Source of the DNA: Fidelibacterota bacterium
GTDB taxonomy: Bacteria; Fidelibacterota; UBA2242; JAFGTP01
Reading direction: 5' to 3'
DNA: 64,000 nucleotides
Assembly (NCBI GenBank): GCA_016934035.1
Contig: JAFGTP010000069.1
Span: 6,073-70,072 of the forward strand
A program made the translations under genes and the position numbers. The first letter of the stretch is position 1. Each line of letters opens with the position of its first letter. Of this stretch, positions 31,619 through 55,256 are shown one piece after another. The notes under the pieces were generated by a model. It made no database searches, was not told the DNA's origin, and saw only the letters and a list, made by a program, of their open reading frames with translations.

Positions 31619-32803
31619 TCAATTGGTATAGATAAAATTATATTTCTGAAACCTGCCATCGGAAAAATTCCAGAGGATTTCCGTACACAGGTCCTTTTCA
31701 TAGGTGAATGAAATTTCAGCGTTTAGTCCTGTTTGATCCCGAAAATAGCCTCTTTTAATTTCCTGACCGGGTGTATGTTCAAACAGAATTACACCGCTGA
31801 GCCAGCCATCAAACTGACTTAACACGGCTTTAACCAGTTGATTTTCAGCATCGTAAAAATAATATTCATATCCCGCCAAAGATTTGTCGATGATACAGTT
31901 CCGGGCTACCAGATTCTTCCGTTCATCGTAATGATAGGTAAAATAGGCCCTGCGGCGGTCCGAATAGCTGCGATAGGATTGAGACAGTTTTCCTTCGCCG
32001 TCATATTCAAAGTGTGTGATTGTTGAAACTGAATCGGACCGGACATAGTTTTTGATTTTCAATAATCCATTTTCATTGTATTGATAAAAAGAGGCCCCAT
32101 TGATCTCACCATTAAAGCTGTAGTCCTCCTTCAAAATCCGGACACCATGAGGCACCTGCAGAAAGGGACTGGAATAAAAGTTTTTCGGTAATTTCAAATT
32201 TTCATACTGATAAAGAAATTTTTGGCCCCATTTTCCAGCAAAATCCCAGGTTTCTTCAATCAGGTTTCCCCAAGGGTCATAGCGGTAGTCCACATCAGCC
32301 ACGGCTTTTTCCTGATGAAATAACTGAGCGGATACCAGCCGTTTTTCCGTATTATAGCGGAATTTCATTTGCCCGGTCAGCCAGCCTTTATAATGGTCCA
32401 AATCAGCTGAGGCCAGCAACCCTTCTTCATACTGGCAGGTTGCAGAGCCGGACCGGCCATCGGAACTGCTGAAGTACTCAGCGATTTTGTCTCCGTTTTT
32501 AGTGTAGGTCATGCGTTCAAAGGAGGTCAGGGAATCAGAAAAATCCCGGTACACAGAAAGTATGTTTCCATTGGCATTATGCTCGTAGTAATTGACCGAA
32601 TGACGAGAGCCATCCTTCAGCGACCAAAACCCCCGGGTCAAAATGCCCTTTTCATTATAGAGGAACTTCGTCTGACCCTCTTCGCCACTGGTATTGGAAT
32701 AAAACGAACGAATAATTCGAAAGCCATCAGCGGATTTTCCAAAGGGCTGGGCCTGACAAAAACCAAAAGCTATGAAGCCGATCATCAGGATTTTTTTAAA
32801 CAT
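31619..32803 (-). CDS. Secreted protein made of YD/RHS-like repeats
   Basis: 394 aa with a signal peptide. It has repeated Y.YD..G.L-type units (YRYDPWGNLIEE, FEYDGEGKLSQS, YHYDERKNLVAR, YFYDAENQLVKA). Confidence 0.55.
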   Translation of the reverse strand: MFKKILMIGFIAFGFCQAQPFGKSADGFRIIRSFYSNTSGEEGQTKFLYNEKGILTRGFWSLKDGSRHSVNYYEHNANGNILSVYRDFSDSLTSFERMTYTKNGDKIAEYFSSSDGRSGSATCQYEEGLLASADLDHYKGWLTGQMKFRYNTEKRLVSAQLFHQEKAVADVDYRYDPWGNLIEETWDFAGKWGQKFLYQYENLKLPKNFYSSPFLQVPHGVRILKEDYSFNGEINGASFYQYNENGLLKIKNYVRSDSVSTITHFEYDGEGKLSQSYRSYSDRRRAYFTYHYDERKNLVARNCIIDKSLAGYEYYFYDAENQLVKAVLSQFDGWLSGVILFEHTPGQEIKRGYFRDQTGLNAEISFTYEKDLCTEILWNFSDGRFQKYNFIYTN

Positions 32804-36637: not shown

Positions 36638-39265
36638 ATGAAATTATCACTCGCACGATTAGAGACCTTCTTGGAAGAAGCATGTGAAAGCTTACGTGGA
36701 AACATGGATGCTTCAGAATATAAGGAATACATTATTGCCATGTTATTCCTGAAAAGAGTAAATGACCAGTTTGAAGTTCATCGCGAAACAAGAAGAAAAA
36801 ATCTTGTTGAAAAAAGAAATATAACAAACCCCGAAATACTCTACACTGAATTAGAACGAGAAAACGCACCGGAATACGATTTCTTTGTTCCCATCGCTGC
36901 CCGATGGAAAAAGTTTGAAGGCGACCCTGAAACAGACGAAGATGGAAATACAATCAATTACATAAAAGACTTACAGGAAGAAATTGGCGACCACCTGAAT
37001 ATCGCACTTGCTGCTTTAGAAGATGCCAACCTTGACAAACTAGACGGTGTTTTAAAATCCATCAACTTTAATCGCAGTATCGGTAAAAACAATAAACAAA
37101 TTACCGACGAAGATTTACGGGAACTGATTCGGGAGTTCAACAAAAAGAAACTCACAGACAACAATCTGGAATTTCCTGACTTGATGGGAGCCGCTTACGA
37201 ATACCTGATTAAATACTTTGCCGACAGTGCCGGTAAAAAAGCCGGAGAATTCTACACACCCAACGAAGTCGTGCGTTTACTGGTAAATATTCTGGAACCT
37301 GCCGAAGATGCCGAGATTTACGACCCAACAGTTGGTAGTGGCGGCATGTTGATTGAAAGTAAAAACTATGTGGAAAGTCGCTATGGTTCTGCCCGAAACC
37401 TTTCGCTGTATGGACAGGAGAAAAGCGGCACGGTTTGGAGTTTAAGTAAAATGAACATGCTGTTCCACGGCATTTATGACAGCAACATTGTTAACGGCGA
37501 TACACTGATGAATCCCTTGCATAAAAAACAAGGTGAATTACAAACTTTTGACATTGTGATTGCCAATCCGCCTTTCTCGCAAAACTACAGCAAAGACGGC
37601 ATGAAGTTCAAAGAACGTTTTAATCATTGGATGCCTGTGAAAGGCAAAGCCGATTTTATGTTCGTGCAGCATATGGTGGCTTCTACCAACAATGCCGGAC
37701 GTATGGCAGTAGTGATGCCTCACGGTGTATTGTTCCGCGGTGGTGAAGAACGCGAATTCCGCAAATGGCTCATCAACAAAGGCTATCTGGAAGCAGTCAT
37801 TGGCATGCCACCGGGCTTGTTTTACGGAACCGGAATTCCGGCTTCTGTAATTGTAGTAAATAAAAAAGATGCCCACCTGCGTGAAAATATATTGTTCATC
37901 AATGCCGACCGTGAATACAAAGAAGGTAAAAACCAGAATAAACTGCGCCCCGAAGACATTGAGAAAATCTCTTTTGTGTATAAGCACAAAGAACAGATTG
38001 ATAAATACAGCCGTTTGGTGAGCAAACAAGAACTGGCAGATGAAGAGTACAACCTGAACATCCGCCGCTTTGTGGACAATGCCCCGCCTGCCGAATCCCA
38101 CGACGTACATGCCCATTTAAAAGGTGGTATTCCTATAGATGAAGTGGATGCCTTGAATCATGCGTTTTCATCGTATCCCGGACTACGCGATAAACTGTTT
38201 ACCGAATCAAAAGAAAACTACTTGCGTTTTACCGATGCCGTTGCAGAAAAAGAAGATATTAAAAAACTACTGGACGAAAGCCCCGAAGTACAAACCACGT
38301 TTGCTAATTACACAAAAGGGTTGGAAAAATGGTGGAGCGAGGCCGTTGTTGATTTTAAAAAACTGCCCGAAGAAAACAACGTGTTTGAATTGTATGGCAA
38401 ATTTTCCGACAGCTTTGCACAAGCTCTTTTCAGTTTGCCTTTTGGTGAAGAGAACAATGGTGCAATACTGGACAAATATCAAAGCCACGGCGCGTTGGCT
38501 GCTTATTGGGACGAACTGAAAACCGACCTGAAAAGTGTGGCTGCCAGCGGCTGGAATGCCGAACTGATACCCGATGATGAAATTCTGCAAAGCCAGTTCC
38601 CCGAAGTGCTGAAAGAACTGCACGACAACCAAAACCGCAAGGAAGAACTGGACGCCCTGTTTGCCGAAGTAAACGAACTGGAAGAAGGCCTTTGGACCGA
38701 AGAAGAATACGATGTGTGGCCCAAAACCGAACTCAAAGAGCACAAAGATGCCATTAAAGCCGATAAGGGCGAACTGCGAGAACTAACCAAGGAAATCAAA
38801 AATCTGAACCGCAGGATAGCCGCCTATAAAAAAGCCGGGCAGGAAAAAGGTAGAGACGCATTACAATGCGTCTCCAATGTTAAGACGCGATTCATCGCGT
38901 CTCAACGATTATCAGAACAAATTGCCGCTGATGAAGCCCGTTTTGCCAAACACAGTGAGTTAGAAGCCGAACTGCGCGAATGCAAAAAAGTAATCAAGCA
39001 GATAAAAGACCGCAAACAGCAACTGGTGGATGAAGCCCGCTTAAAAATAACACCCGAAGAAGCCAAAGACTTAATTCTTGACCGCTGGAACCGTACCCTG
39101 CACCAGACCATATACGGCTACCTGCAGGCCCATACCCGCCAACTGCTGCAAAACATTGAAAAACTGTGGGACAAATACACCACTACCCTAAGCAGCATTT
39201 TAAGCAAGCGCGAAGAAGAAACCCAATTACTCAACCAATTCTTACATGAACTCGGCTATGAATAA
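36638..39265 (+). CDS. hsdM: Type I restriction-modification system methyltransferase subunit HsdM, with a long coiled-coil C-terminal extension
   Basis: 875 aa. It has an HsdM_N-like start (..[20 protein letters not shown]..), the SAM motif [12 protein letters not shown] and the catalytic IVIANPPFS motif. About 390 aa of charged helical sequence lie after the MTase core. Confidence 0.92.
38853..38902. repeat. Two adjacent perfect hairpin repeats (AGACGC-N-GCGTCT cores) inside the hsdM reading frame
   Basis: The first hairpin is gagacgcatt-ac-aatgcgtctc (38853-38874; 10-bp stem). The second is agacgcgat-tc-atcgcgtct (38883-38902; 9-bp stem). They are translated in frame as ..[19 protein letters not shown].. 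Confidence 0.7.
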
Positions 39266-39389: not shown

Positions 39390-39417
39390 ATTTTTAACGG
39401 AGTTGGGCTATGAGTGA
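39385..39417 (+). pseudogene. Vestigial 3' end of a second (replaced) hsdM allele overlapping the hsdS start
   Basis: Frame 39385-39417 reads QTFLTELGYE-stop. The intact hsdM ends QFLHELGYE-stop (39236-39265). Nucleotide differences are mostly at synonymous positions. The relic stop TGA (39415-39417) lies 3 nt past the hsdS ATG (39410-39412). Confidence 0.55.
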
Positions 39418-40729
39418 GTGGAAAGAAAGTAAATTAAAAGAGGTAGTTGATATTCGGGTAAGTAATGTTGATAAAAAGATTTATCCAAATAAGAGTTTAG
39501 TTAAACTTTGTAATTACATGGATGTTTATAAAAATGATTACATATCTTCTAAAATATCATTTATAAATGGTTCAGCAGATAAAAATGAGATTTTACGATT
39601 TGGATTACAAATCAATGATGTAATTATTACTAAAGATTCTGAAACACCTGATGATATTGCAGTTTCTTCAGTCGTGTCTGAGAAAATTGAGAATCTTGTT
39701 TGTGGTTATCATTTGGCAATTCTTAGACCGAATCAGGATGAAGTTGATGGCAGATTTTTAATGTTTATGTTCAAGTTACCAGCAATAAAAAACTATTTTT
39801 TTAGTGTAGCAAATGGTAGTACAAGATATGGGCTTACAATTGGAAATATTGAAAATGCTAAATTAAGGTTTCCACCCCTTCCCACCCAACGCCGCATCGC
39901 CCGCATCCTGTCCACCGCCGATGCGGTGATCGAAAAAACACAAGCCGCCATTGCCAAATACAAAGCCATCAAACAAGGCATGCTGCAGGATTTGTTTACC
40001 CGCGGCATCGACACCCAAACTAGCAAACTGCGCCCCAAATACCAAGACGCCCCGGAACTCTATAAAGAAAGCAAACTGGGCTGGATTCCGAAGGAGTGGG
40101 AAGTGGAAATATTTGGAGAACAAGTAGAATTAGTTCACGGTCATCAATTTAGAAATTATGATTTTACAGAATTTGGTTTTCCTATTGTTAAGATAGGACA
40201 AGTAAAACCTGAAAATTTAAATTTAAGTGATTGTTCATGCGTCTCTTTTGATAGGATAGATGAATTTATAAATGAGATTATTGGTAACGGCGATGTGCTT
40301 ATGGCTCTTACAGGAGCCACACTTGGAAAGGCTTGTTTAGTGCATGGTCTGAATGGAATAGTACTTCAAAACTATCGTGTTGGTAGGTTTGAACCAAAAA
40401 TTAGAGAAAAAGATATTGATAAAACATTCCTATACTACATATTAATTGCTGGTGAACTACTGAATCAAATTTTCAGCAAAGTAAATTCTGGTGCACAAGG
40501 CAATATTGGTAAAGCAGATTTTGAGAAGGCAACTTTCAAAAAACCTAAATTCAACGAGCAACTACTAATTGCTCAAAGATTGCAATCAATCGATAATAAA
40601 ATCCAAACCGAACAAACCTACCTGCACAAATTGCAGCAGATAAAAGCCGGTTTAATGGCTGATTTGCTCAATGGGAAGAAAGAAGTAATTATAACTGATC
40701 AAGAAATTTTAACAGAAAGAAATAATTAA
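39410..40729 (+). CDS. hsdS: Type I restriction-modification system specificity subunit HsdS (two TRDs + two conserved repeats)
   Basis: 439 aa. The conserved central region is ..LRFPPLPTQRRIARILSTADAVIEKTQAAIAKYKAIKQGMLQDLFTRGI.. The C-terminal repeat is ..EQLLIAQRLQSIDNKIQTEQTYLHKLQQIKAGLMADLLNGK.. Confidence 0.9.
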   Translation: MSEWKESKLKEVVDIRVSNVDKKIYPNKSLVKLCNYMDVYKNDYISSKISFINGSADKNEILRFGLQINDVIITKDSETPDDIAVSSVVSEKIENLVCGYHLAILRPNQDEVDGRFLMFMFKLPAIKNYFFSVANGSTRYGLTIGNIENAKLRFPPLPTQRRIARILSTADAVIEKTQAAIAKYKAIKQGMLQDLFTRGIDTQTSKLRPKYQDAPELYKESKLGWIPKEWEVEIFGEQVELVHGHQFRNYDFTEFGFPIVKIGQVKPENLNLSDCSCVSFDRIDEFINEIIGNGDVLMALTGATLGKACLVHGLNGIVLQNYRVGRFEPKIREKDIDKTFLYYILIAGELLNQIFSKVNSGAQGNIGKADFEKATFKKPKFNEQLLIAQRLQSIDNKIQTEQTYLHKLQQIKAGLMADLLNGKKEVIITDQEILTERNN

Positions 40730-40730
40730 A

Positions 40731-42449
40731 ATGACCAATATTTCAAGTGGTTTAAAGTCAATAAACGAACTTCTGAATTACGATTTTTTCATACCTTACT
40801 ATCAACGTGGCTTTCGTTGGGATAACAACCAGGTAAATGATCTTTTAAATGACATTTATGATTTCTATAAAAAGAAGAAATTATCAGAAAATGAGTTCTA
40901 TTGTTTACAACCCATTGTTGTTACACCAACTGATGGGAAATATACTTTAATCGATGGACAGCAACGTCTAACGACTATTTATATTATCATGGCTGTGTTA
41001 GATGAAGTGATGAGAATGTTAGGCAAAACCAAGTTTTCACTTGAATATCAAACCAGAGAAGATAGCGAAGTGTTTCTTAAAGACATCGACTACATAAAAA
41101 GAGATGATAATATAGATTACTTCCACATGTGCCAAGCTAAAGAAACGATTGAAGATTGGTTTTCAAAAAAAGACGGTGGGGTAAAAGTAAATCTTTTAAA
41201 CACACTCTTAAATGAAGAAGGAAATAATGTTCGGATTATATGGTATGAAGTTGATAGTACGATCGATCCAATTAATCTTTTTACCAATTTAAATATGGGG
41301 AAAATACCTCTGACAAACGCAGAATTGATTAAGGCTCTTTTTCTGAATAGAGATAATTTTATTGATGAGAAAAATGAGAAAGCCAAACAATTACGCCAAC
41401 TTGAAATTGCGTCCGATTGGGACAGAATAGAACAAACGTTGCGAGAAGAGGAATTTTGGTATTTTCTACAAGATGACAATAATCATTATGATAATCATAT
41501 AGAAATTATCTTCGACCTAATCTCAGAAAATATGGTTAAAAGAGGCACAAAAGAACATTACGACAAATATTATACATTTAGATTTTTCCATGAAAAATTT
41601 AAACAAAAATCAGATATTGAAGAAAATTGGAAGGAAATTAAAAATTATTTTCAAACCTTTAGAGACTGGTTTAAAAATAAAGAACTTTACCATTTAATTG
41701 GATTTTTAATTACTACGGATGTTAGTTTGAAATATCTGTATGAAGAATCAAAAATACACACGAAGAAAGAATTTAAAAAGTTTTTAATAGAAGCAGTAAA
41801 AAAACAAATTAGTTCAGTTAAAATAGAAGAACTCACATATCAGGAAGATAAAAGTGTTTTAAGAAATGTTCTCTTACTATTTAATATTGTGACTATTTTA
41901 CAAAATGAAAAAACTAATTTGAGATTCCAATTCGGAAGATACAAAAACGAAAATTGGGATATAGAACATATTCACGCTGTAAAATCGGAGATGCCCACTT
42001 CAAGAGTTGAGCAATTAGACTGGCTGAGGCAAGTTAAGGATTATACTGATGATTCAGATTTGCTCAAGCAAGTGACCGATTATCTGGAAACTCAAGCGCA
42101 AGATAGAAAATATGATTTTGAAGAACTGTACGATTTAGTAATAAAAAAATATAGCGAAGAAGGAAGAGATGAAGATATTAATGATATTTCAAATCTTACT
42201 TTACTCGATTCGGGAACAAACCGTGGATATAAAAATGCTGTATTTCCAATTAAAAGGAAAACAATTATCGAAAAGGATGAGACCGGCACATTTATTCCCC
42301 TCTGTACAAAAAATGTATTTCTTAAATATTATACAAGAAAGCTGGAACAGATGAGTCTATTGGGAAAAGAAGACAGAATGGCATATAAAACAATTCTTGT
42401 GAAAACTATAAATGATTTTTTAAACCTTAACAATAAAACAGAAGAATAA
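40731..42449 (+). CDS. GmrSD-family protein (N-terminal DUF262 ParB-like NTPase domain + C-terminal DUF1524 His-Me-finger nuclease domain)
   Basis: 572 aa. DUF262 motifs are FIPYYQRGFRW, LIDGQQRLTT (40953-) and FTNLNMGKIPLTNAELIKA. DUF1524-like motifs are NWDIEHIHA (about 41955-41978) and NLTLLDSGTNRGYKN. The ATG lies 1 nt after the hsdS stop. Confidence 0.8.
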   Translation: MTNISSGLKSINELLNYDFFIPYYQRGFRWDNNQVNDLLNDIYDFYKKKKLSENEFYCLQPIVVTPTDGKYTLIDGQQRLTTIYIIMAVLDEVMRMLGKTKFSLEYQTREDSEVFLKDIDYIKRDDNIDYFHMCQAKETIEDWFSKKDGGVKVNLLNTLLNEEGNNVRIIWYEVDSTIDPINLFTNLNMGKIPLTNAELIKALFLNRDNFIDEKNEKAKQLRQLEIASDWDRIEQTLREEEFWYFLQDDNNHYDNHIEIIFDLISENMVKRGTKEHYDKYYTFRFFHEKFKQKSDIEENWKEIKNYFQTFRDWFKNKELYHLIGFLITTDVSLKYLYEESKIHTKKEFKKFLIEAVKKQISSVKIEELTYQEDKSVLRNVLLLFNIVTILQNEKTNLRFQFGRYKNENWDIEHIHAVKSEMPTSRVEQLDWLRQVKDYTDDSDLLKQVTDYLETQAQDRKYDFEELYDLVIKKYSEEGRDEDINDISNLTLLDSGTNRGYKNAVFPIKRKTIIEKDETGTFIPLCTKNVFLKYYTRKLEQMSLLGKEDRMAYKTILVKTINDFLNLNNKTEE

Positions 42450-42450
42450 T

Positions 42451-44682
42451 ATGAGAAACATCGGTAAAAAAACCAGTTTTTTTGAGATATTTGATAAAGG
42501 AAATCAAAAAGTTGAAATCCCTATAATTCAGAGAGACTACGCACAAGGTAGGATTTCGGAAATCGAAGTGCGAATTAATTTTCTGAAGTCAATAAAAAAA
42601 AGTTTTGAATCTAATGAGCCAATACATCTTGACTTTATATATGGTAGTATTGAGAATAATGTTTTTATCCCGCTTGATGGTCAACAGCGATTAACTACTT
42701 TGTTTCTTTTGCACTGGTATTTAGCAGCAAGAGAAGAAAGATTAGAAGAATTCAATAAGATATTTAGAAAAGACAATGAGTCACGTTTTACTTATGAGAC
42801 CAGGATATCATCAAGAGAGTTTTGCAATGCTTTGGTATCAAATAAGATTGAATTTCCAAAGAGTAAAGATGAATTTATAAGTGAGATAATAAAGGACTCA
42901 TCCTGGTATTTCATGTCGTGGGATAACGACCCAACAATTTCTGCTATGCTCATCATGTTGGATTCAATACATAATCTGTTTTTTGATATAACTGATAAAT
43001 ATGACAAATTAATAGATCCTGGACAATTTATTAGTTTTCAGTTTATTGAGTTAAAAGATTTTGGTTTAAGCGATGAACTTTACATAAAAATGAATGCACG
43101 GGGTAAAGAGCTAACATATTTTGAAAACTTCAAAGCGAAATTTTCTAAAATCCTGGAGCAACAAGACAATGAGAACGGTACTTCTCTAAAGGATGAATTT
43201 TCAATTAAAATCGATACATGCTGGACAGATTTGTTTTGGCCCTTTAAGGATCCTTCAACAAATATTATAGATGATAAAATAATGAATCTGATCCGGGTTA
43301 TTATTACAAATTATTATTCACTCCGCGATGATGTTGATTTTCATGTAATAAATGAATTGACCAATAATAAAGTAAAATATTCATACTATAAATATGAAGA
43401 ACTAAGTTGTTTTGATGAGGTGACTAATAAATATATCATTGCTTATTTAAATTGCTTATTAGGAGAAAATAATGTATTTCGGTATTACTTGGAAGATAAG
43501 GGTTTAGTGGATGAGTTGGGAATATTTAAAAACGTTATTAACCATAATATATCATATCCAGTTAGAATTCAGTTTTACGCATTGTATCAATATTTAATTG
43601 AAGGATATTCAAAAGAACAATTGTTTGACTGGATGAGAGTCATAAGGAATTTGACAGAAAATACACGCATTGATGAAATAAAAGATTATATCGATGCTCT
43701 TAGATCTGTTAGTATGCTCCTTAACCAAAGTGAAAATATCCTTGAATACTTAACCGATAATAACAATGAAGTCAGTGGTTTTTCTACAATCCAGGTAAAA
43801 GAAGAAAGAATAAAGGCAATTCTATTATTAAGAGATGATAATTGGAGAGAAGCAATTATTGATATTGAGAATCATACCTATTTTTATGGTCAAATCGGTT
43901 TCTTACTGAATTTCTCCAAAATAGAAGATTACTTTGAAACAGACCATACGCTGAATTGGTCTGTAGATGAAAACGACAAATATTTTGAAGAATTTAAAAT
44001 TACTATCGATAAAGCGAAATCTGTATTTAATGAAAATGGTATTAATGACTTTAATGATTTTATTTTTGAACGGGCTTTACTAAGTATTGGTGATTATTTG
44101 TTGAGGAAAGGAAGTAACCGTAGTTTTGGAATAAATGGAAAAGAAAGAGATATTAGTTGGAAACGGTTACTCCGCGATAATGATAGAAGCCGTGATTACC
44201 TTAGAGTTCTTTTTTCGAAAATAAGCAGTGATTCTGTTTTTGATGATTTGAAAACTATTATTCAAAATTCAGATATAAATGATTGGAGAAGGTATTTTAT
44301 AGAATTTCCGGAACTTATATCAGTCTGCGGTTACAATAAATACATTAGGTTTAATAGTGAAAAAGACATATTACTTTTAGAAAAAACACAGACAAATGGT
44401 AGGCATAGGGAATATTACACTTACGCTCTTGCTACCCGGCTTAGGAAAGCTGAGAATTCAGTAAACTATATTAAAGGGTATTCTGTTGACCATTTTAAGT
44501 ATATCAAAAGGATAAATAATATTAGTGTAGATATCAAATTTGATTATTTTTATGATCGTGGCCGTTGTTATAAAATTGAATACAATAAAGAAGTGTACTT
44601 CTTTGATGACGATATTGAAATATTAGACTTCTTATTAAAAAATCAAATTATTAAAACTAATTCAACTTACGAGGGTAAGTAA
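42451..44682 (+). CDS. DUF262-domain protein with a large unassigned C-terminal region (divergent GmrSD-family paralog?)
   Basis: 743 aa. DUF262 motifs are EIPIIQRDYAQGR, PLDGQQRLTT (42676-) and YIKMNARGKELTYFENFKA. The C-terminal region of about 500 aa has no clear motif. Only a weak DIENH (43861-43875) plus LLSIGDYLLRKGSNRS trace is present. The ATG lies 1 nt after the upstream stop. Confidence 0.7.
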   Translation: MRNIGKKTSFFEIFDKGNQKVEIPIIQRDYAQGRISEIEVRINFLKSIKKSFESNEPIHLDFIYGSIENNVFIPLDGQQRLTTLFLLHWYLAAREERLEEFNKIFRKDNESRFTYETRISSREFCNALVSNKIEFPKSKDEFISEIIKDSSWYFMSWDNDPTISAMLIMLDSIHNLFFDITDKYDKLIDPGQFISFQFIELKDFGLSDELYIKMNARGKELTYFENFKAKFSKILEQQDNENGTSLKDEFSIKIDTCWTDLFWPFKDPSTNIIDDKIMNLIRVIITNYYSLRDDVDFHVINELTNNKVKYSYYKYEELSCFDEVTNKYIIAYLNCLLGENNVFRYYLEDKGLVDELGIFKNVINHNISYPVRIQFYALYQYLIEGYSKEQLFDWMRVIRNLTENTRIDEIKDYIDALRSVSMLLNQSENILEYLTDNNNEVSGFSTIQVKEERIKAILLLRDDNWREAIIDIENHTYFYGQIGFLLNFSKIEDYFETDHTLNWSVDENDKYFEEFKITIDKAKSVFNENGINDFNDFIFERALLSIGDYLLRKGSNRSFGINGKERDISWKRLLRDNDRSRDYLRVLFSKISSDSVFDDLKTIIQNSDINDWRRYFIEFPELISVCGYNKYIRFNSEKDILLLEKTQTNGRHREYYTYALATRLRKAENSVNYIKGYSVDHFKYIKRINNISVDIKFDYFYDRGRCYKIEYNKEVYFFDDDIEILDFLLKNQIIKTNSTYEGK

Positions 44683-44713: not shown

Positions 44714-44746
44714 TTTGTCGTAAATATTTACTAAATTTGCGACAAA
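44714..44746. promoter_or_regulatory. Candidate operator / internal promoter region upstream of the AbiEi-like gene
   Basis: The inverted repeat tttgtcg (44714-44720) / cgacaaa (44740-44746) flanks the perfect palindrome TAAATATTTA (44721-44730). It sits in the only sizeable spacer (78 nt) inside the operon. Confidence 0.3.
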
Positions 44747-44760
44747 AATGGATACATAAA

Positions 44761-45390
44761 ATGCAAAAAAGCCTTGAAAAACAAATACTTACAAAATTCA
44801 AAAAAGCGGGACGGGGTACGCTCTTTTTCGCTGAAAATTTTCATTCACTTGGCAATACCAAAGCCGTCAATAAAACACTGGAGCGGCTGGTGGATAAGGG
44901 CGAGTTACTGCGTGTCGCAACCGGTATTTATGTCCGTCCCAAAAAAGATGCGGTTATTGGCATTATTACACCCGGAATTGAGGACATTGCCAAAGCCATT
45001 GCCAAAAGAGACCGCGCCCGAATTGTGCCCACCGGTATTTATGCCCTTAACAAACTGGGACTATCCACCCAGGTGCCTTTGAATATTGTGTACCTAACCG
45101 ATGGTGCTGCCCGGAAAATCAAGGTGGGGAAAAATACCATCACCTTTAAAAAAACCACACCCAAAAATGTTGCTGCTGTGGGAGAAATCAGCAAACTGGC
45201 TATTCAGGCGCTGCGCACGATAGGCAAAGACAATGTAACAAAAGCAGAAATAGAAAAAATTCAGACGCTGCTCAAAAAAGAAAAACCTACCCGCCTGGAA
45301 CAGGATATTCGTCTTGCCCCGGTGTGGATAAAAGAAATCATGAAACCCGTATTGGAAAATTTAACCAATGAATCAAAAAGCACTCAGTGA
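44761..45390 (+). CDS. AbiEi-like antitoxin / transcriptional regulator (DUF6088-type wHTH)
   Basis: About 209 aa from ATG 44761 (the track ORF begins at TTG 44737). ..AVNKTLERLVDKGELLRVATGIYVRP.. resembles the AbiEi N-terminal winged-helix. It overlaps the AbiEii-like gene by 23 nt. Confidence 0.6.
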   Translation: MQKSLEKQILTKFKKAGRGTLFFAENFHSLGNTKAVNKTLERLVDKGELLRVATGIYVRPKKDAVIGIITPGIEDIAKAIAKRDRARIVPTGIYALNKLGLSTQVPLNIVYLTDGAARKIKVGKNTITFKKTTPKNVAAVGEISKLAIQALRTIGKDNVTKAEIEKIQTLLKKEKPTRLEQDIRLAPVWIKEIMKPVLENLTNESKSTQ

Positions 45391-46381
45391 ATGGCTTAAA
45401 CTGCCGGACGAAACAAAAAAAAATATATTTACAGAGATCAGTAAAAAAACAGGACTGCCTGCCATTGCTGTAGAAAAGGACTGGTGGGTGGTCAAAACAC
45501 TGGAAGTGGTTTTTAATACGGATATTGCCGATCACACCGTGTTTAAAGGCGGCACATCATTAAGCAAAGCCTGGGGCCTCATCGAACGCTTTTCCGAAGA
45601 TATAGATCTGGCATTGGACAGGAAGTTTTTAGGTTTTGACAAAGAAATTACCGGCTCACAGGTAAAAAAACTGCGGCAGCATTCATTCAAGTTTATATCT
45701 GAAGAATATTATCCCAAATTAGAGGAAGCCTTTCATCATTACGGATTGACGGAAGTTGAATTGCAATTAACAGAACCTTCTGCCAATGACCAGGACCCGC
45801 TGATTATAGAAACGCACTATCCCGGACTTATCGAAAATTCAGACTACATTCATTCACGCGTCCTAATCGAAATAGGCAGCCGTTCACTAAAGGAACCATT
45901 TACCGTCAGGGAATTCAATACTATGGTGGGAGAACATTATCCGGATAAATCCTTTGCGGATTCTGTCATTTCTATACCTACCGTAAATCCGGAAAGAACA
46001 TTTCTGGAAAAAATCTTTCTGTTGCATGAAGAATTTCAAAAACCTTTAGACAGAATAAAGGTTGATCGTTTAAGCCGGCATCTGTATGATGTTGAAAAAC
46101 TGATGGATACCGAATATGCTGAAAAAGCCTTATCCGATCCAAATCTGTACAAACATCTTGTAGAACACAGACGAACCATGACACCGGTCAGGGGAATCGA
46201 TTATGCCTGTCACGCACCGACTAAAATAAATCCGGTTCCGCCTGATAATTTATTTAATGCTTGGAAAAAAGATTATTTACAAATGCAGGAAAATATGATT
46301 TATGGTGAATCCCTGCCGTTTGATAAACTTCTGGATAGAATTCGTGAGTTAAAAGAACGAATCAATAAAATAAAACTATAA
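45368..46381 (+). CDS. AbiEii/AbiGii-family nucleotidyltransferase toxin
   Basis: 337 aa. ..VFKGGTSLSKAWGLIERFSEDIDLAL.. is the hallmark NTase block of AbiEii-type toxins. RHLYDV lies in the C-terminal half. Confidence 0.8.
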   Translation: MNQKALSEWLKLPDETKKNIFTEISKKTGLPAIAVEKDWWVVKTLEVVFNTDIADHTVFKGGTSLSKAWGLIERFSEDIDLALDRKFLGFDKEITGSQVKKLRQHSFKFISEEYYPKLEEAFHHYGLTEVELQLTEPSANDQDPLIIETHYPGLIENSDYIHSRVLIEIGSRSLKEPFTVREFNTMVGEHYPDKSFADSVISIPTVNPERTFLEKIFLLHEEFQKPLDRIKVDRLSRHLYDVEKLMDTEYAEKALSDPNLYKHLVEHRRTMTPVRGIDYACHAPTKINPVPPDNLFNAWKKDYLQMQENMIYGESLPFDKLLDRIRELKERINKIKL

Positions 46382-46393
46382 GAGATAAAAATT

Positions 46394-49300
46394 ATGGCAG
46401 AATATGTTAATGTAGAAAAACCATTTTTAGATAAACTTCGCTTGTTGGGCTGGCAGGTTATCGATCAGGGCATCGGCATTCCACAGGAACCACAAAAAAG
46501 CCTGCGCGAAACTTTTAAACAAGTGGTTTTGCCCGAAGAATTTAAAAAAGCCATAAAAAAAATAAACACCACAGCCGAGGGCTCTGAATGGTTAACCGAC
46601 AGGCAGTTGGATGAACTACTGCGTGAGATTCAGAATTTCCCCGGTAAAAGCCTGCACGAAGCCAATAAAGAAATTCACCGCCTTTTGCTCAAAGGTACAT
46701 CGGTAGCCAAAAATGAACTTACAGGCGAGCAAGACCCAAGCGTGCGTTTGGTGGATTTTAAAAACTACGACAATAACTCTTTTATTGCCATAAACCAGTT
46801 TCGTTTAATCACGCCAGGAGCCAGCCGTCAGGGTATTATTCCTGATATTGTACTGTTCTTAAACGGTATGCCCATTTGTGTGGTAGAAGCCAAAGACTTT
46901 GATGTGGCAGAACCATTAAGCGAAGCATTTTTGCAGGTTACACGCTACGCCAACACTCGTGATGACGATTATGGGTATAAAGAAGGCGAAGAGCGTTTGT
47001 TTCATTACAATATGTTCAGCATCATCACCCACGGTACCGAAGCAAGGGTTGGAACCATCAGCGCCGAATTTGATTTTTACAACAACTGGGTGGACATTTT
47101 CCCCGAAGAATACAAAGTTGTGGATTTTCCGCCTGATGAAGAACGCCAGGAAGTATTGATTCATGGTATGCTGAACAAGGAAATCCTGATTGATATTCTG
47201 AAACATTTCACCCTGTTTATTGAAATCAAAAAAGGTGTGGAAGTAAAAATTGTTGCCCGTTACAATCAATACCGTGCTGTCGGCAAAATAATTAATAGTC
47301 TTCGTGCAGGTCGTACACCAATGGAAAGAGGAGGAGTGGTTTGGCATACACAGGGCAGCGGTAAAAGTCTATCCATGGTTTTTCTGATCCGAAAACTGCG
47401 TTCACTGGATGATTTGAAGGACTTAAAAATCATTTTCATTGTTGACCGAATCGATTTGGAAGACCAGCTTTCAGAAACAGCAGCCATGACCGGCGAACCT
47501 GTGAGAATCATTAGCCGAAGAAACAAACTGAACGAATTAAGCGACGACACCGGCGATGTAAATATGGTGATGATTCACAAATTTTTAGACGAGAAAAATA
47601 TTTCAGCACAATCGCTTATCGAAGCGGGCATGGTGCCAAAATTTGAAACATTTGAAACCATCAACAACAGCGATCGCATTTTATTATTGATAGATGAAGC
47701 CCACCGGACACAAGGCGGCGATATGGGTGACAATTTGTTTTCTGCTTTCCCCAATGCCACACGGATCGGTTTTACAGGAACGCCGCTTTTAACTGAACGC
47801 CACGAAATCAAAACCCATGAGCGATTTGGCGGTTTTATTGATTTCTACAAATTTGACAAAGCCGTGAAAGACCGCGCCACCGTTGAAATAAAATACATCG
47901 GAAAAGTTTCAAAAGACAAACTGGACGACAAAGATGCCTTTGATACCGAATTTGAAGATATGTTTGAAAAACAGTCTCAGGCAGAAAAAGAAGAAATTCA
48001 ACGCCGCTATGGTTCATTCATCGCTTATCTGGAATCAAAAGACCGTATTGCAAAAATTGCCAAAAACATTGTTGAGCATTATCACAAAGATATTTTGGTG
48101 AATGGTTTTAAAGCCCAGGTTGTGGCATCGAGTATTGTTGCCGCTGTACGGTATAAATATGAATTGGAAATTGCCATAAAAAATAAAATAGACGAATTAA
48201 AATCATTGCCCGAAAATGAAAAAGACAATGAACTGATCCAACAGTTGGAATTTTTGAAAGTGGCATCTATTGTGTCAAGCCTTGGCAACAACGAGCCGGG
48301 ATACATCAGCAAAGCCCGTCGTGAAGCCAAAGAAATGAATGCCATAGAGAATTTCAAAGCAGACTTTAATCCTGAAAAACCGGAAACCGGAATTGGTTTT
48401 ATCTGCGTTTGCGACCGTTTGCTTACCGGTTTTGACGCCCCGGTTGAACAGGTGATGTATTTGGATAAAAGTTTAAGAGAGCATGATTTGTTCCAGGCTA
48501 TTACGCGGGTTAACAGAACGAAACACGGTAAATCCTTTGGTTTAATTGTTGACTATTTTGGTGTAACCAAACATTTAGCAGATGCCTTAAGTATATACAC
48601 AGACAAAGACAAATTGCAATGGGAAGATTTTCAGAAAGTCTTCCGGGATGTGGATAAAGAAATTCCGATACTTGAAGCACGGTATAAACGTCTGCTCGAT
48701 TTATTTACCGGTAATAAACTCAAAGACATTGAAAAATTTCTAAAACAAAAATTCACTGACGAAATCGAAGAATTTGAGTTTGCAGAATCCTGCATTGAAA
48801 CTGCAAAGAATGTAAAATTCAGAGCAGAACTACTCACCTATACAAAAAGTTTCTTCGATAGCCTTGATTTACTTTTTAATATTCAAGCAGGAACTGAATA
48901 CTGGATTCCTGCAAAACGTTTGGGATACATTATCTGGCGAATAAAAGACCGCTACAAAGATGAAACCATGGATTTGAAATGGGCTTCTGAAAAAGTCCGA
49001 AAACTCATTGACAAACATTTGCTGTCCATAGGCATTGACACGAAAGTACAACAGGTTTCAATTCTTTCAGATGAATTTGGTAAAAAGGTGGATTACCTGA
49101 ACAAAACGCCAAAATCGAAAGCATCAGAAATGGAACATGCCATTCGCTGGCACATCAAAGTAAATCTTGAGAAAGATCCGACACTTTACAGTCATTTCAA
49201 AGACCGCCTGGAATCCATCTTAAATTCTTACAAAGAAAATTGGGAAACCATCGTTGACGAGTTGCAAAAGTTGCGCGAAGAAATGGCAGAAGGACGTAAA

Positions 49301-49606
49301 CCAACCACTCCAGGCATATCTGGAATTGAAGCACCATTTTTCGATTTGCTGAAAAGTAGCGTTAAAAGTGAGAACGAAGCAGAAATCAAGAAAACAAAAG
49401 AACTGATTCATACCTTAATGCCAATACTGCATGAAACCGCAGAAATAAGAAACTTCTGGACAAAAGCAGCGGAACGTAAAAGAGTGGAAGGATTAATTGA
49501 AGATGAAATACATTATTCAGGTGTAGAAGTGTTATCAAATAAAGCTGCTGAATTGACAACTGAACTAATGAAACTTGCCAAAAACAGAGAGTCAGACTTG
49601 AGATGA
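46394..49606 (+). CDS. hsdR: Type I restriction enzyme R subunit HsdR (nuclease + SF2 translocase)
   Basis: 1070 aa. The N-terminal PD-(D/E)xK-like region is ..PDIVLFLNGMPICVVEAK.. Walker A is HTQGSGKSLSMVF, the DEAH box is LLLIDEAHRTQ, and FTGTP and QAITRVNR motifs are present. Confidence 0.93.
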   Translation: MAEYVNVEKPFLDKLRLLGWQVIDQGIGIPQEPQKSLRETFKQVVLPEEFKKAIKKINTTAEGSEWLTDRQLDELLREIQNFPGKSLHEANKEIHRLLLKGTSVAKNELTGEQDPSVRLVDFKNYDNNSFIAINQFRLITPGASRQGIIPDIVLFLNGMPICVVEAKDFDVAEPLSEAFLQVTRYANTRDDDYGYKEGEERLFHYNMFSIITHGTEARVGTISAEFDFYNNWVDIFPEEYKVVDFPPDEERQEVLIHGMLNKEILIDILKHFTLFIEIKKGVEVKIVARYNQYRAVGKIINSLRAGRTPMERGGVVWHTQGSGKSLSMVFLIRKLRSLDDLKDLKIIFIVDRIDLEDQLSETAAMTGEPVRIISRRNKLNELSDDTGDVNMVMIHKFLDEKNISAQSLIEAGMVPKFETFETINNSDRILLLIDEAHRTQGGDMGDNLFSAFPNATRIGFTGTPLLTERHEIKTHERFGGFIDFYKFDKAVKDRATVEIKYIGKVSKDKLDDKDAFDTEFEDMFEKQSQAEKEEIQRRYGSFIAYLESKDRIAKIAKNIVEHYHKDILVNGFKAQVVASSIVAAVRYKYELEIAIKNKIDELKSLPENEKDNELIQQLEFLKVASIVSSLGNNEPGYISKARREAKEMNAIENFKADFNPEKPETGIGFICVCDRLLTGFDAPVEQVMYLDKSLREHDLFQAITRVNRTKHGKSFGLIVDYFGVTKHLADALSIYTDKDKLQWEDFQKVFRDVDKEIPILEARYKRLLDLFTGNKLKDIEKFLKQKFTDEIEEFEFAESCIETAKNVKFRAELLTYTKSFFDSLDLLFNIQAGTEYWIPAKRLGYIIWRIKDRYKDETMDLKWASEKVRKLIDKHLLSIGIDTKVQQVSILSDEFGKKVDYLNKTPKSKASEMEHAIRWHIKVNLEKDPTLYSHFKDRLESILNSYKENWETIVDELQKLREEMAEGRKPTTPGISGIEAPFFDLLKSSVKSENEAEIKKTKELIHTLMPILHETAEIRNFWTKAAERKRVEGLIEDEIHYSGVEVLSNKAAELTTELMKLAKNRESDLR

Positions 49607-50286
49607 AATTAGAAGGAATTAACATAAAAGTTGAGAAAACAGACCGCCGCAAAACGGTAAGTATTTTTATAGAACGGGATGGCTCTGTTCGGGTTTTGGC
49701 ACCTTCAACTACCAGTGATGAGAAAATTGAAGAAGCGGTAAAAGCCAGGCAATATCAAATATTTTCAAAACTCGCCAAATGGCAGGAACTCAATGAGGGT
49801 AGAGTCAACCGTAAATTTGTAAACGGTCAATCGTTTTTATACTTCGGTAGAAATTACAGACTTTCAATTGTAGAAAAACAAGATGTTCCATTAAAACTAA
49901 TAAAAGGCTACTTAATACTTGATAAAAACAAACTTGATAAAGCAGACGAAGTATTCAGGCAATTTTATAAGGAGAAAGGAAAAAAGAAAATTGAAGAACG
50001 GTTGAAATTAATTGCAGAGAAATTTGAACAAAAACCGACTTCAATTAAAGTTATGGAATTGCAAAATCGTTGGGCATCCTGGTCACCAAAACATGGGCTG
50101 AATTTTCACTGGAAATGTGCTATGGCACCTGTTCCGGTAATTGACTATATCATAACCCATGAAATGGTGCATTTAAAATATCCAAATCATTCTCCGGAAT
50201 TCTGGAACGAACTGGATAAAAAAATGCCTGACTATAAAGAATATGAAAACTGGTTAAAACAAAATGGTGTTAAAATGTCAATATAG
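49603..50286 (+). CDS. DUF45 / YgjP-like (M48-related) zinc metallohydrolase
   Basis: 227 aa. It has the HExxH motif in ITHEMVHLKYPNHSPEFW. The ATGA start/stop overlaps hsdR (49603-49606). Confidence 0.8.
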   Translation: MKLEGINIKVEKTDRRKTVSIFIERDGSVRVLAPSTTSDEKIEEAVKARQYQIFSKLAKWQELNEGRVNRKFVNGQSFLYFGRNYRLSIVEKQDVPLKLIKGYLILDKNKLDKADEVFRQFYKEKGKKKIEERLKLIAEKFEQKPTSIKVMELQNRWASWSPKHGLNFHWKCAMAPVPVIDYIITHEMVHLKYPNHSPEFWNELDKKMPDYKEYENWLKQNGVKMSI

Positions 50287-53075: not shown

Positions 53076-55256
53076 TTATTCCACAAACAAATGTCTGAAA
53101 ATGATCGGCTTCTGATTAATAAATGAAATCTTCACAAAATAGATACCCGCCGGAAAATCCTGAATGGAAATTCTGCCGGCCTGCTGCAAGCCGGTGGATG
53201 CAGTGTAAACCATCCGGCCCTGTAAATTGTAGATTTTTATCTCTCTCATCTGGTGATCGGCTTCAATATTAAGAAAGAACCTGGCAGGATTCGGGAAGGC
53301 GCTGAATTTTATAGTCCGCGACACCATTGGATTATCGGGGTTGCTGTCCGTAGCGACATGACTTCGTAATTGAGGAATATATTCATCCAGCCAATGGATC
53401 CTGGTCTCGATCCAGGTTTTGAGTTTATTAATTTCCTGTTCATAGGTATATGAAGGCGGATCGGTTTCCGGGGTCATATAACCCTGGTCAATGGGCCAGA
53501 GTTCAAAATGTCGCTCTTTCACGTCATCCACCAGGGCCACAACAGAATCAATATAAGAATTGATATTGTCCGGATCCAAAAAGCCTTCCCGCAATTCAAA
53601 ATATCGATTGATCAATTGGTCAGTAAATTCCTCATCCTGAAGCAGGCGATTGTACCAGTATGGCGGACTGGGCCAGCAGGGATAATGACTATAAGACCAG
53701 CCGGAACCATCCTTTATCGCAAAAATTCCCTCGCTAATGTTTTTCCATGCCCAGTCAAAATCCCAGACCGGGCCGGCATGTAACAATCCGCCTTTGCTAT
53801 CTTTGTCCTTGTAAAAAAACCGGCTTTTTTTGTAGCCATCGACATTTCTGGATACTTCGCTGACCAGGAAATAATCGATGAAACTGTTGACATCCAGATA
53901 TTTGCGGTAACCATTTTCCGGATCTGCGAAATCCTCACTTCGCAGGGATCCTTCAAGATTATTGATGAAATTTTGTATATAGTCTTTCTGTTCATCAGCC
54001 AGTTCATCGGGTTTTGGGTCGTGGTAAACGAAATAAACCTTGTTCTCCGGATGATCAATGGCTGTGTAGTCTGATAAAAAACTATCGTCGTCAGAATAAT
54101 AATCGATTTTGATGATATAGCCGCCGGTGAGGTCATCTCCGGAAATCTCATCGGGCTCCAGTTTTGAAACGTCCACCCTGTTTTTGTCCCGTTTGATTTT
54201 TTCTGTGAACAGGTAAATTCCCCGGTAAGTATTATTGACAAACACTTCACACAATTTGGATCGGGGAGCATAATGCCCCATGGATCGAAACATCTCAAAA
54301 GCCAGAGAGTTCCTGACAAAGGCCTTATCATTGTAATTGGGAATCAGGATCCAGTCATTCTCTTTTGCGAATCCCAGTAGTGAAATATTGAGATTTTCGC
54401 CCGCTTCATCCCTGGTTTCTATACCATAGGGTTTTTGTGGAAAAGTGGCAGAATAAGAGCCTCTGATTTCAATACCGATATTTCCATCATAATGTTTGAT
54501 TGAATCAGATGGATGATTCAATTCTCCTTCGCCATGATAGGTGATTTTTAAATTGGCATCAATCTTGGCTTCATCGGGAATGTATTCGCCATCAGTATCG
54601 ATCATGAAAATCGGCAATGGCGATGCCGCGAAATCTTCAAATTGAACATCTGTGCCCACAAGTTCCGGCAGTATTAAAAAGTCTGAACTGGAAGTCCCCA
54701 TATTCACGCCATGAATGGCCAGCAGGTTTTCACCGGGAACCAGATACCGTATATAATTGGAAATATCTATGGTAACTTCTGAAGTGGCCTCATTATTACT
54801 GGGTGCGCTGTAATTCCAGGCTGCAAACCGGGAGGCATTCATGATGGTGCATTCATGGCCATTGATATAAGCAATAAACCCGTCGTCATATCTTATTTTT
54901 AATTGCAGGACCAGAATTTTTTCCAGGGTTTGAGCACTCAGATTGAAGGGAATTCGAATATAACACCCGGTATTGGCATTACCGCCGTCATCGTGCATTT
55001 CATCACCCACATCCAGACTGATAAACTGCTCGTATCCGGTGCCTTTTTCATAGCCGATTCCGCCCGGAAGTCCTTCACAAATTTTCCAGTCGGAATCATC
55101 ATAATCCAGCTTCGACCGCCATGCTGTGCCACTGTCTTCATGGGGGACAAATGCTTTTTTGGTGGCTTGCTTTTCCACTAAAGTGATGGTAGTTCCTGCC
55201 ATTAATGGGAGTATTAAAATTAAGATAGTGACAAGTATAGCAATGGATTTTTGCAT
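53076..55256 (-). CDS. CotH-family (atypical kinase fold) secreted protein with T9SS C-terminal sorting domain
   Basis: 726 aa with a signal peptide. The central ..IEIRGSYSATFPQKPYGIE...NDKAFVRNSLAFEMFRSMGHYAPRSKLCEVFVNNTYRGIYLFTEKIKRD.. resembles CotH. The C-terminus is FSAFPNPARFFLNIE...AGIYFVKISF. Confidence 0.65.
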   Translation of the reverse strand: MQKSIAILVTILILILPLMAGTTITLVEKQATKKAFVPHEDSGTAWRSKLDYDDSDWKICEGLPGGIGYEKGTGYEQFISLDVGDEMHDDGGNANTGCYIRIPFNLSAQTLEKILVLQLKIRYDDGFIAYINGHECTIMNASRFAAWNYSAPSNNEATSEVTIDISNYIRYLVPGENLLAIHGVNMGTSSSDFLILPELVGTDVQFEDFAASPLPIFMIDTDGEYIPDEAKIDANLKITYHGEGELNHPSDSIKHYDGNIGIEIRGSYSATFPQKPYGIETRDEAGENLNISLLGFAKENDWILIPNYNDKAFVRNSLAFEMFRSMGHYAPRSKLCEVFVNNTYRGIYLFTEKIKRDKNRVDVSKLEPDEISGDDLTGGYIIKIDYYSDDDSFLSDYTAIDHPENKVYFVYHDPKPDELADEQKDYIQNFINNLEGSLRSEDFADPENGYRKYLDVNSFIDYFLVSEVSRNVDGYKKSRFFYKDKDSKGGLLHAGPVWDFDWAWKNISEGIFAIKDGSGWSYSHYPCWPSPPYWYNRLLQDEEFTDQLINRYFELREGFLDPDNINSYIDSVVALVDDVKERHFELWPIDQGYMTPETDPPSYTYEQEINKLKTWIETRIHWLDEYIPQLRSHVATDSNPDNPMVSRTIKFSAFPNPARFFLNIEADHQMREIKIYNLQGRMVYTASTGLQQAGRISIQDFPAGIYFVKISFINQKPIIFRHLFVE

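Follow-up and report, generated by a model that had tools for sequence, protein, structure and literature searches.

The DUF262 gene pair and its V. cholerae counterpart

The window analysed here is a 64-kb stretch of contig JAFGTP010000069.1 from a Fidelibacterota bacterium, and all positions given for it are counted from its first nucleotide. Two consecutive genes in it encode DUF262 proteins of 572 and 743 amino acids (aa). The subject of this study is the longer of the two, which an earlier note on this DNA (on 42451-44682) had described as a DUF262 module followed by a long remainder that matched nothing. With a probability of roughly 0.8, we assign it and the 572-aa protein as the GrwB-type and GrwA-type subunits, respectively, of a modification-dependent (Type IV) restriction system that is GmrSD-like and made up of two proteins. 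The gene pair comprises the following features:

40731-42449, + strand: GrwA-like gene, 572 aa, DUF262 plus DUF1524 His-Me nuclease (Pfam; homology to GrwA)
42451-44682, + strand: GrwB-like gene, 743 aa, ATG start, single open reading frame (ORF)
42484-43143, + strand: DUF262/GmrSD_N domain of the 743-aa protein, residues 12-231 (Pfam E=4.8e-21)

The description of the 743-aa ORF was confirmed by the ORF list and by Pfam, where GmrSD_N/DUF262 was the sole family match and covered residues 12-231 only. No other ORF of at least 80 aa overlaps 42451-44682 on either strand, and the reading frame is far beyond chance, since the protein has more than 8000 database relatives (of the best 120 listed, most span nearly the whole protein, at 41-100% identity to it). 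The DUF262 domain contains QR (residues 27-28), DGQQR (76-80, nt 42676-42690) and YxxxN (211-215). These motif residues, R80 included, were conserved in 75/75 members of our broader conservation set, which consists of homologs drawn from genomes; as judged from the sequence, the NTPase motif set of the 743-aa protein is intact.

The upstream gene ends 1 nt before the ATG of the 743-aa gene. Its product carries DGQQR at residues 75-79 (nt 40953-40967) and the DUF1524 pattern that had been read in it earlier, namely NWDIEHIHA at residues 408-416 (nt 41952-41978) followed by NLTLLDSGTNRGYKN at residues 488-502 (nt 42192-42236), with H413 and N488 lying 75 residues apart. Pfam GmrSD_C scored 19.2 bits on this protein, under its gathering score of 23; R79, H413, N488 and N497 were present in 75/75 homologs of the GrwA-like family. 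The best solved relative is PDB 9jfl chain B (‘DUF262 domain-containing protein’, E=6.6e-7), which matches the N-terminal ~80 residues only. The single-chain GmrSD enzymes Eco94GmrSD, BrxU, SspE and HEC-06 likewise possess an N-terminal DUF262 domain with QR, DGQQR and (F/Y)xxxN, then a helical region, and their complete architecture is present in the upstream protein. The 743-aa protein shares the N-terminal part of this plan, but has no DUF1524 His-Me domain and, by analogy with GrwAB, would need a second protein.

GrwAB is a two-protein restriction system found in the V. cholerae WASA lineage, in the LAT-1 region of VSP-II (Nat Microbiol 2025, PMC12137116). GrwA consists of DUF262, a linker and DUF1524 and holds the nuclease residues; neither GrwA nor GrwB protects alone, both being required, and defence is abolished by the substitutions R81A, H431A, N521A and N530A in GrwA and by R86A in GrwB (PMC12137116). 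The V. cholerae system targets DNA with glucosylated or arabinosylated hydroxymethylcytosine and 7-deazaguanine DNA, phage escapers map to the modification enzyme DpdA, and in E. coli GrwAB is active in the absence of Type I genes (PMC12137116). [quoted passage not shown]

The GrwAB reference sequences were recovered via a search seeded with a gammaproteobacterial homolog and then a cluster look-up, in which an 821-aa V. cholerae protein was found on 330 contigs. The V. cholerae locus (L086) encodes a 603-aa protein with GmrSD_N and GmrSD_C, the 821-aa protein and a 651-aa protein with no Pfam match; it also contains transposase genes, a phage-type integrase gene, rpoD and dnaG, in agreement with the published LAT-1 layout. 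In the 603-aa protein R81 lies in DGQQR, H431 in WDIEHI, N521 in GNLTLL and N530 in STNRSY, and residue 86 of the 821-aa protein is the R of DGQQR. Because all five published mutant positions match, these two proteins are GrwA and GrwB.

Both window proteins are homologous to this pair over their full length. The 743-aa protein aligns with GrwB at 36% identity over 744 alignment columns (query residues 5-686, E=5e-128) and the 572-aa protein with GrwA at 40% identity over 595 residues (E=1e-149). All five residues that mutagenesis proved essential are conserved in the window pair: R79, H413, N488 and N497 of the 572-aa protein align with GrwA R81, H431, N521 and N530, and R80 of the 743-aa protein pairs with GrwB R86. 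Gene order is also the same, with a DUF262+DUF1524 gene tightly coupled to a following DUF262 gene with a long C-terminus. There are differences as well: the window host, a Candidatus Marinimicrobia metagenome-assembled genome by the source name of the 100%-identical database protein, belongs to another phylum, the 743-aa protein is 78 aa shorter than GrwB, represents a ‘GxNxSFL’ sub-type and has another tail, and the cassette lies inside a Type I restriction-modification (R-M) operon by an AbiE pair, whereas that of V. cholerae lies beside a Shedu gene. The gene adds a distant member (36% identity, other phylum, other sub-type, Type I-embedded) to a family that was described in 2025; it does not represent a new kind of system, and the locus brings no new principle. 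The novelty once claimed for the protein could not be upheld, because of its whole-protein homology to the described GrwAB and not because of a known-domain match or disorder.

To place the pair in a wider context, 85 related loci were collected, of which 82 have upstream DNA and represent 77 non-redundant complete gene pairs. A GrwA-like gene was found directly upstream of the GrwB-like gene in every locus retaining upstream DNA (82/82), most commonly with a 4-nt overlap at the junction. Pairwise identities of the two proteins correlated strongly over 70 pairs (r=0.86; the maximum of 1000 label permutations was 0.15). Since they are always paired and their identities correlate, both genes travel and diverge together: they make up an obligate cassette of tightly linked genes that lie next to each other or overlap. 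Among the cassettes without a recognisable hsdR downstream, some adjoin Hachiman, reverse-transcriptase/OLD or SIR2 genes, others ordinary genes.

The C-terminal region of the 743-aa protein

The part of the protein beyond DUF262 deserves special attention. By conservation and predicted structure it can be divided as follows:

43246-43587, + strand: less conserved helical region, residues 266-379, predicted to be all helices; lowest conservation before the tail
43588-44445, + strand: conserved family-specific C-terminal core, residues 380-665, helical at 380-530 and alpha/beta at 535-665
44446-44679, + strand: variable beta-rich C-terminal tail, residues 666-743; lowest conservation, many indels

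The earlier note had seen no clear catalytic domain in the C-terminal ~500 aa, and this was substantiated by all searches performed. A Pfam scan of residues 231-743 and of residues 431-743 alone, at E-values up to 10, returned nothing meaningful, and across 47 family members (E up to 0.1) no Pfam family matched consistently outside DUF262. NCBIfam had no match for this ~500-aa region, and PADLOC none for any part of the 743-aa protein. PDB sequences, searched with phmmer and with a 47-sequence profile, yielded nothing meaningful for the region either; the one marginal PDB sequence match of the whole protein, to SspE, fell within the DGQQR segment (E=0.17). The one PDB profile match of the C-terminal region, to a designed TIM barrel, consisted of a hydrophilic helix matched weakly and repeatedly, and was discarded. 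Foldseek comparisons of the full model with PDB, and of the C-terminal model with PDB and BFVD, reached a best E-value of 0.36 at a sensitivity that was weak; the only relevant match was the C-terminal domain of SspE (E=2.9, TM 0.25, rank 14). Hence a confident match to a known domain, such as a canonical DUF1524/HNH, was not obtained in these searches.

The alignment of homologs, which had been proposed as a check, revealed a region that is conserved and confidently folded, and so neither disordered nor unconserved. Among 47 relatives, invariant residues are scattered through the C-terminal part, and conservation along the family is moderate to high at ~380-665 and drops in the tail. Residues kept in at least 90% of the 75 homologs are W394, R396, N400, N404, Q448, E451, E452, K455, W465, E473, G480, Q481, R541, A542, G547, Y549, W570 and W612; all of these except N404 were taken as signature residues, each kept in at least 70 of the 75, and the conserved C-terminal signature residues of V. 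cholerae GrwB and of the window protein are held in common throughout. AlphaFold2 modelled the whole protein with a predicted local distance difference test score (pLDDT) of 89.6, and residues 380-743 with a pLDDT of 94.7 and a predicted template modelling score of 0.91. In the model a helical part extends to ~530 and is followed by an alpha/beta part and then the beta-rich tail. The C-terminal region is a real, folded and conserved module of uncharacterised function.

We searched residues 380-743 exhaustively with HMMER against 1.84 billion cluster representatives, which gave 1150 matches at E up to 0.001. In the 150 matches listed, the module occupies the same C-terminal position, either in proteins of which most measure 700-870 aa or in what look like shorter fragments; the majority of matches end around residue 665. 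In a word-indexed search with residues 267-743, too, the region turned up nowhere but behind DUF262. No fusion of this module to a different domain was found, the top matches all being GrwB-like proteins or fragments of them. Possible, though in our view doubtful, is that the core at 380-665, seen only fused to this DUF262 subtype, represents an unclassified fold which reads hypermodified bases or gates the partner nuclease in response. If so, the core would determine the range of substrates that GrwAB-type enzymes attack, and the near-invariant cluster Q448/E451/E452/K455/E473/Q481/R541/W570 would form its functional site.

The tail after residue 665 is longer in many homologs and varies in length. 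Alignment of loci L001-L085 to window residues 553-560 and 650-655 separated two GrwB-like sub-types: that of the window (~720-800 aa) has G-x-N-x-S-F-L, and that of V. cholerae GrwB (~820-870 aa) has x-R-x-N-L and H-Y-H-x-E-L. The sub-types are distinguished by the 554-560 loop and the variable tail; past ~residue 665 the tail differs both between and within them.

An arms race would be in keeping with the variable tail and the two sub-types; in it the GrwB-like subunit would serve mainly as a guard or decoy that lets the GrwA-like nuclease resist phage-encoded inhibitors (such as IPI*-type proteins), and not to sense DNA or activate the nuclease. This possibility was raised by the authors of both GrwAB and TgvAB. 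We consider it very unlikely: without its partner, GrwA fails to protect even against phages that have no known inhibitor, and the NTPase arginine of GrwB is essential (PMC12137116). Moreover, the strong conservation of the C-terminal core from phylum to phylum is unlike that of a fast-evolving decoy.

The His-Me trace and the role of the subunit

In a His-Me finger, the catalytic His ends strand beta1 and is followed by strand beta2 and by a helix that bears the metal-binding Asn or His. A faint trace of such a site had been read in two motifs of the 743-aa protein, both of which are present in the sequence; the start given for the first (43861) was two codons off, and that of the second (44077) was exact:

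43855-43893, + strand: motif 1, IIDIENHTYFYGQ, residues 469-481; end of a helix plus coil in the model
44077-44124, + strand: motif 2, LLSIGDYLLRKGSNRS, residues 543-558; beta-hairpin (551-553, 556-558) in the model

These motifs raise the question of whether, in the sub-type of the window at least, the C-terminal region has remained an active His-Me (DUF1524-like) nuclease despite high divergence, which would make this a cassette with two nucleases. The local likeness of the 743-aa protein to its neighbour is real: DIENH corresponds to DIEH, and LL-x-KGSNRSF to LL-x-SGTNRGY, and the spacing from His to Asn is similar (81 residues, against 84 from H413 to N497 in the neighbour). In motif 1, E473 was kept in 74/75 homologs, H475 in 62/75 (83%), G480 in 74/75 and Q481 in 70/75, and N556 of motif 2 is invariant in the close set of 47 homologs. 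An unconstrained profile alignment of both C-terminal halves was, in addition, collinear over 240 columns, with KGSNRS paired with SGTNRS. However, this alignment (hhalign, C-terminal half of the target family versus linker and DUF1524 of the neighbour family) is not significant (E=0.59, probability 0.09), and it pairs the catalytic His of the neighbour with R453 rather than with H475.

Other evidence also speaks against a second nuclease. Pfam GmrSD_C or HNH did not match the 743-aa protein at E up to 10, nor the 47 family members at E up to 0.1, where one chance-level AHH match appeared in one member. N556 was kept in only 48/75 homologs (64%), no co-variation of H475 with N556 was seen that would mark a sub-family active site, and among the 75 homologs no His or Asn outside DUF262 is invariant. 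In the secondary structure of the AlphaFold2 model H475 does not end a strand, but lies in coil after helix 463-473, and the only beta-beta-alpha element (551-553, 556-558, 570-575) is without His; Foldseek, with its poor sensitivity, found no His-Me structure for the models. The functional V. cholerae GrwB reads E-R-N at motif 1, with Asn where the window protein has H475, and has Ser at the N556 position, and GrwA H431A alone abolishes defence, so that no second nuclease compensates (PMC12137116). An active nuclease in this region is thus improbable. As a meaningful vestige the trace did not survive either, given the incomplete conservation of H475 and N556, the Asn/Ser of an active GrwB and the insignificant profile alignment. 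On the level of sequence the His-Me resemblance is locally real, yet it is not a family feature. Segment 473-481 is probably of functional importance, since E473 is almost invariant, though probably not as a His-Me active site.

The most likely role of the 743-aa protein is that of a partner subunit without a recognisable nuclease site, which serves the neighbouring nuclease and not the Type I enzyme. The earlier note had offered partnership with the neighbouring enzyme as one option, and it is this option that prevailed: the genes form an obligate cassette homologous to that of GrwA and GrwB, where both proteins are needed and the nuclease residues are in GrwA. As suggested by the published GrwAB work, the GrwA-like and GrwB-like proteins would act as a complex, both DUF262 NTPase domains would be needed to license cleavage, and the His-Me finger of the GrwA-like protein would cut invading DNA with hypermodified bases. 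We further propose that the core at 380-665 may dock to the nuclease subunit, or regulate or gate it, and/or help to read the DNA modification, and that the variable tail (666-743) and the 554-560 loop may tune specificity.

Several points weigh against this assignment to a GrwAB-type system. Direct experiments concern the V. cholerae protein only, from which the complex is carried over to the window by analogy, and the role given to the C-terminal core is our own proposal. The window protein belongs to the shorter sub-type (~720-800 aa) and not to that of V. cholerae, and shares only 36% identity with the tested protein, so its substrate range may differ. The conservation of E473 (99%) and H475 (83%) leaves room for a functional site of some kind around 473-481. 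Finally, Foldseek with the full-length model against PDB also missed the solved DUF262 structures of SspE and BrxU, and because of this the Foldseek negatives are weak evidence; the profile search, unlike Foldseek, sees SspE weakly for the DUF262 domain.

The comparison bears on how GmrSD-like enzymes recognise modified DNA and on why TgvAB and GrwAB need a second DUF262 protein. It defines a GrwB-specific module with a conserved core (380-665), a variable tail and two sub-types, and maps the near-invariant residues of this module onto the experimentally tractable V. cholerae protein, where E451, E452, K455, E473, Q481, R541 and W570 correspond to GrwB E478, E479, K482, E500, Q508, R569 and W604. 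Furthermore, the Asn and Ser of V. cholerae GrwB show the candidate His-Me residues to be dispensable in a working system.

A cassette within a Type I operon

The gene pair is part of a co-oriented string of genes in the order hsdM, hsdS, 572-aa gene, 743-aa gene, AbiEi, AbiEii, hsdR and a gene for a YgjP-like peptidase. The members of the string other than the pair are:

36638-39265, + strand: hsdM (Pfam N6_Mtase, HsdM_N; PADLOC MTase_I)
39410-40729, + strand: hsdS (Pfam Methylase_S; PADLOC Specificity_I)
44737-45390, + strand: AbiEi (Pfam DUF6088; PADLOC AbiEi)
45368-46381, + strand: AbiEii (Pfam AbiEii; PADLOC AbiEii)
46394-49606, + strand: hsdR (Pfam HSDR_N, SWI2_SNF2, T1R_D3-like)
49603-50286, + strand: YgjP-like metallopeptidase (Pfam YgjP-like)

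With its gene sitting between hsdS and hsdR in one co-oriented string, the 743-aa protein could be taken to serve the Type I R-M enzyme around it as an accessory, specificity or regulatory subunit, and a partnership with the Type I complex had indeed been suggested. The hsdM-hsdS-A-B-hsdR arrangement recurs in related cassettes: a recognisable hsdR was found downstream on the same strand in 14/77, a lower bound, since the count was made by tblastn with the Hsd proteins of the window and very divergent Type I families may escape it. The remaining 63/77 cassettes, however, have no recognisable hsdR downstream, and the V. cholerae cassette lies outside a Type I operon and is functional in E. coli alone (PMC12137116).

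Base composition also marks the cassette as an insert. The GrwA-like and GrwB-like genes have a GC content of 30% (26% at third codon positions), in contrast to 43.6% for hsdM and 39.8% for hsdR, which makes the cassette a compositionally foreign insert in the Type I operon; AbiEi has 43%, hsdS 34.9% (also low) and the whole window 40.7%. The cassette is independent of the Type I genes: it is a self-contained module inserted into the Type I R-M operon and not part of this operon. We therefore abandoned the suggested partnership with the Type I complex, to which we give next to no credence.

The same position is known from TgvAB (J Bacteriol 2024, PMC11411939; PMC11014532), a GmrSD-like Type IV system of two proteins that V. 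cholerae carries on VPI-2. As in the window, the TgvAB genes sit in a Type I operon, with hsdS on one side and hsdR on the other, and a nuclease with DUF262 and DUF1524 requires a DUF262-only partner. In TgvAB, however, the genes stand in the opposite order, starting with the DUF262-only partner, and only the DUF262 domains are related to the window proteins. An identity of the cassette with TgvAB, prompted by the hsdM-hsdS-X-Y-hsdR synteny, was rejected on account of this reversed order and of a similarity confined to the DUF262 level (first 399 aa of TgvA and TgvB compared). BLASTP of the 743-aa protein against TgvA residues 1-399 (Table S5, PMC11411939) gave E=0.01 over 38 aa only, and the GrwAB authors describe GrwB and TgvA as distinct beyond DUF262 (PMC12137116).

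The nesting of the window cassette in a Type I operon is paralleled by BrxU in BREX and by TgvAB, and GrwAB-type cassettes, like TgvAB, are repeatedly nested in Type I R-M operons. This repeated nesting fits the idea that Type I enzymes cover unmodified, and GrwAB-type enzymes modified, phage DNA. A cassette at this position would cover modified phage DNA that escapes a restriction directed at unmodified DNA.

The AbiEi/AbiEii toxin-antitoxin pair is a second embedded system, outside the cassette. An AbiE pair between the GrwB-like gene and hsdR was also observed in a locus from a Methylococcales metagenome-assembled genome (L064, 2932-4532), and in the closest Type I relative (L013) the GrwB-like gene overlaps hsdR directly, without an AbiE pair. 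HsdM of the window is unusually long (875 aa), with ~390 residues past the N6_Mtase domain that have no Pfam match. The YgjP-like gene and the 3′ end of hsdR share 4 nt, and a homolog lies downstream of hsdR in 10/14 of the Type I-embedded loci.

Scans for tRNA genes and Rfam families over the 64-kb window found none of either. The genes flanking the defence string resemble housekeeping genes. On one side the island is flanked by an ORF on the minus strand (31619-32803) with a weak, sub-threshold RHS-repeat match, and on the other by a gene on the minus strand (53076-55256) for a CotH-kinase protein whose C-terminus is a secretion-system sorting domain (Por_Secre_tail).

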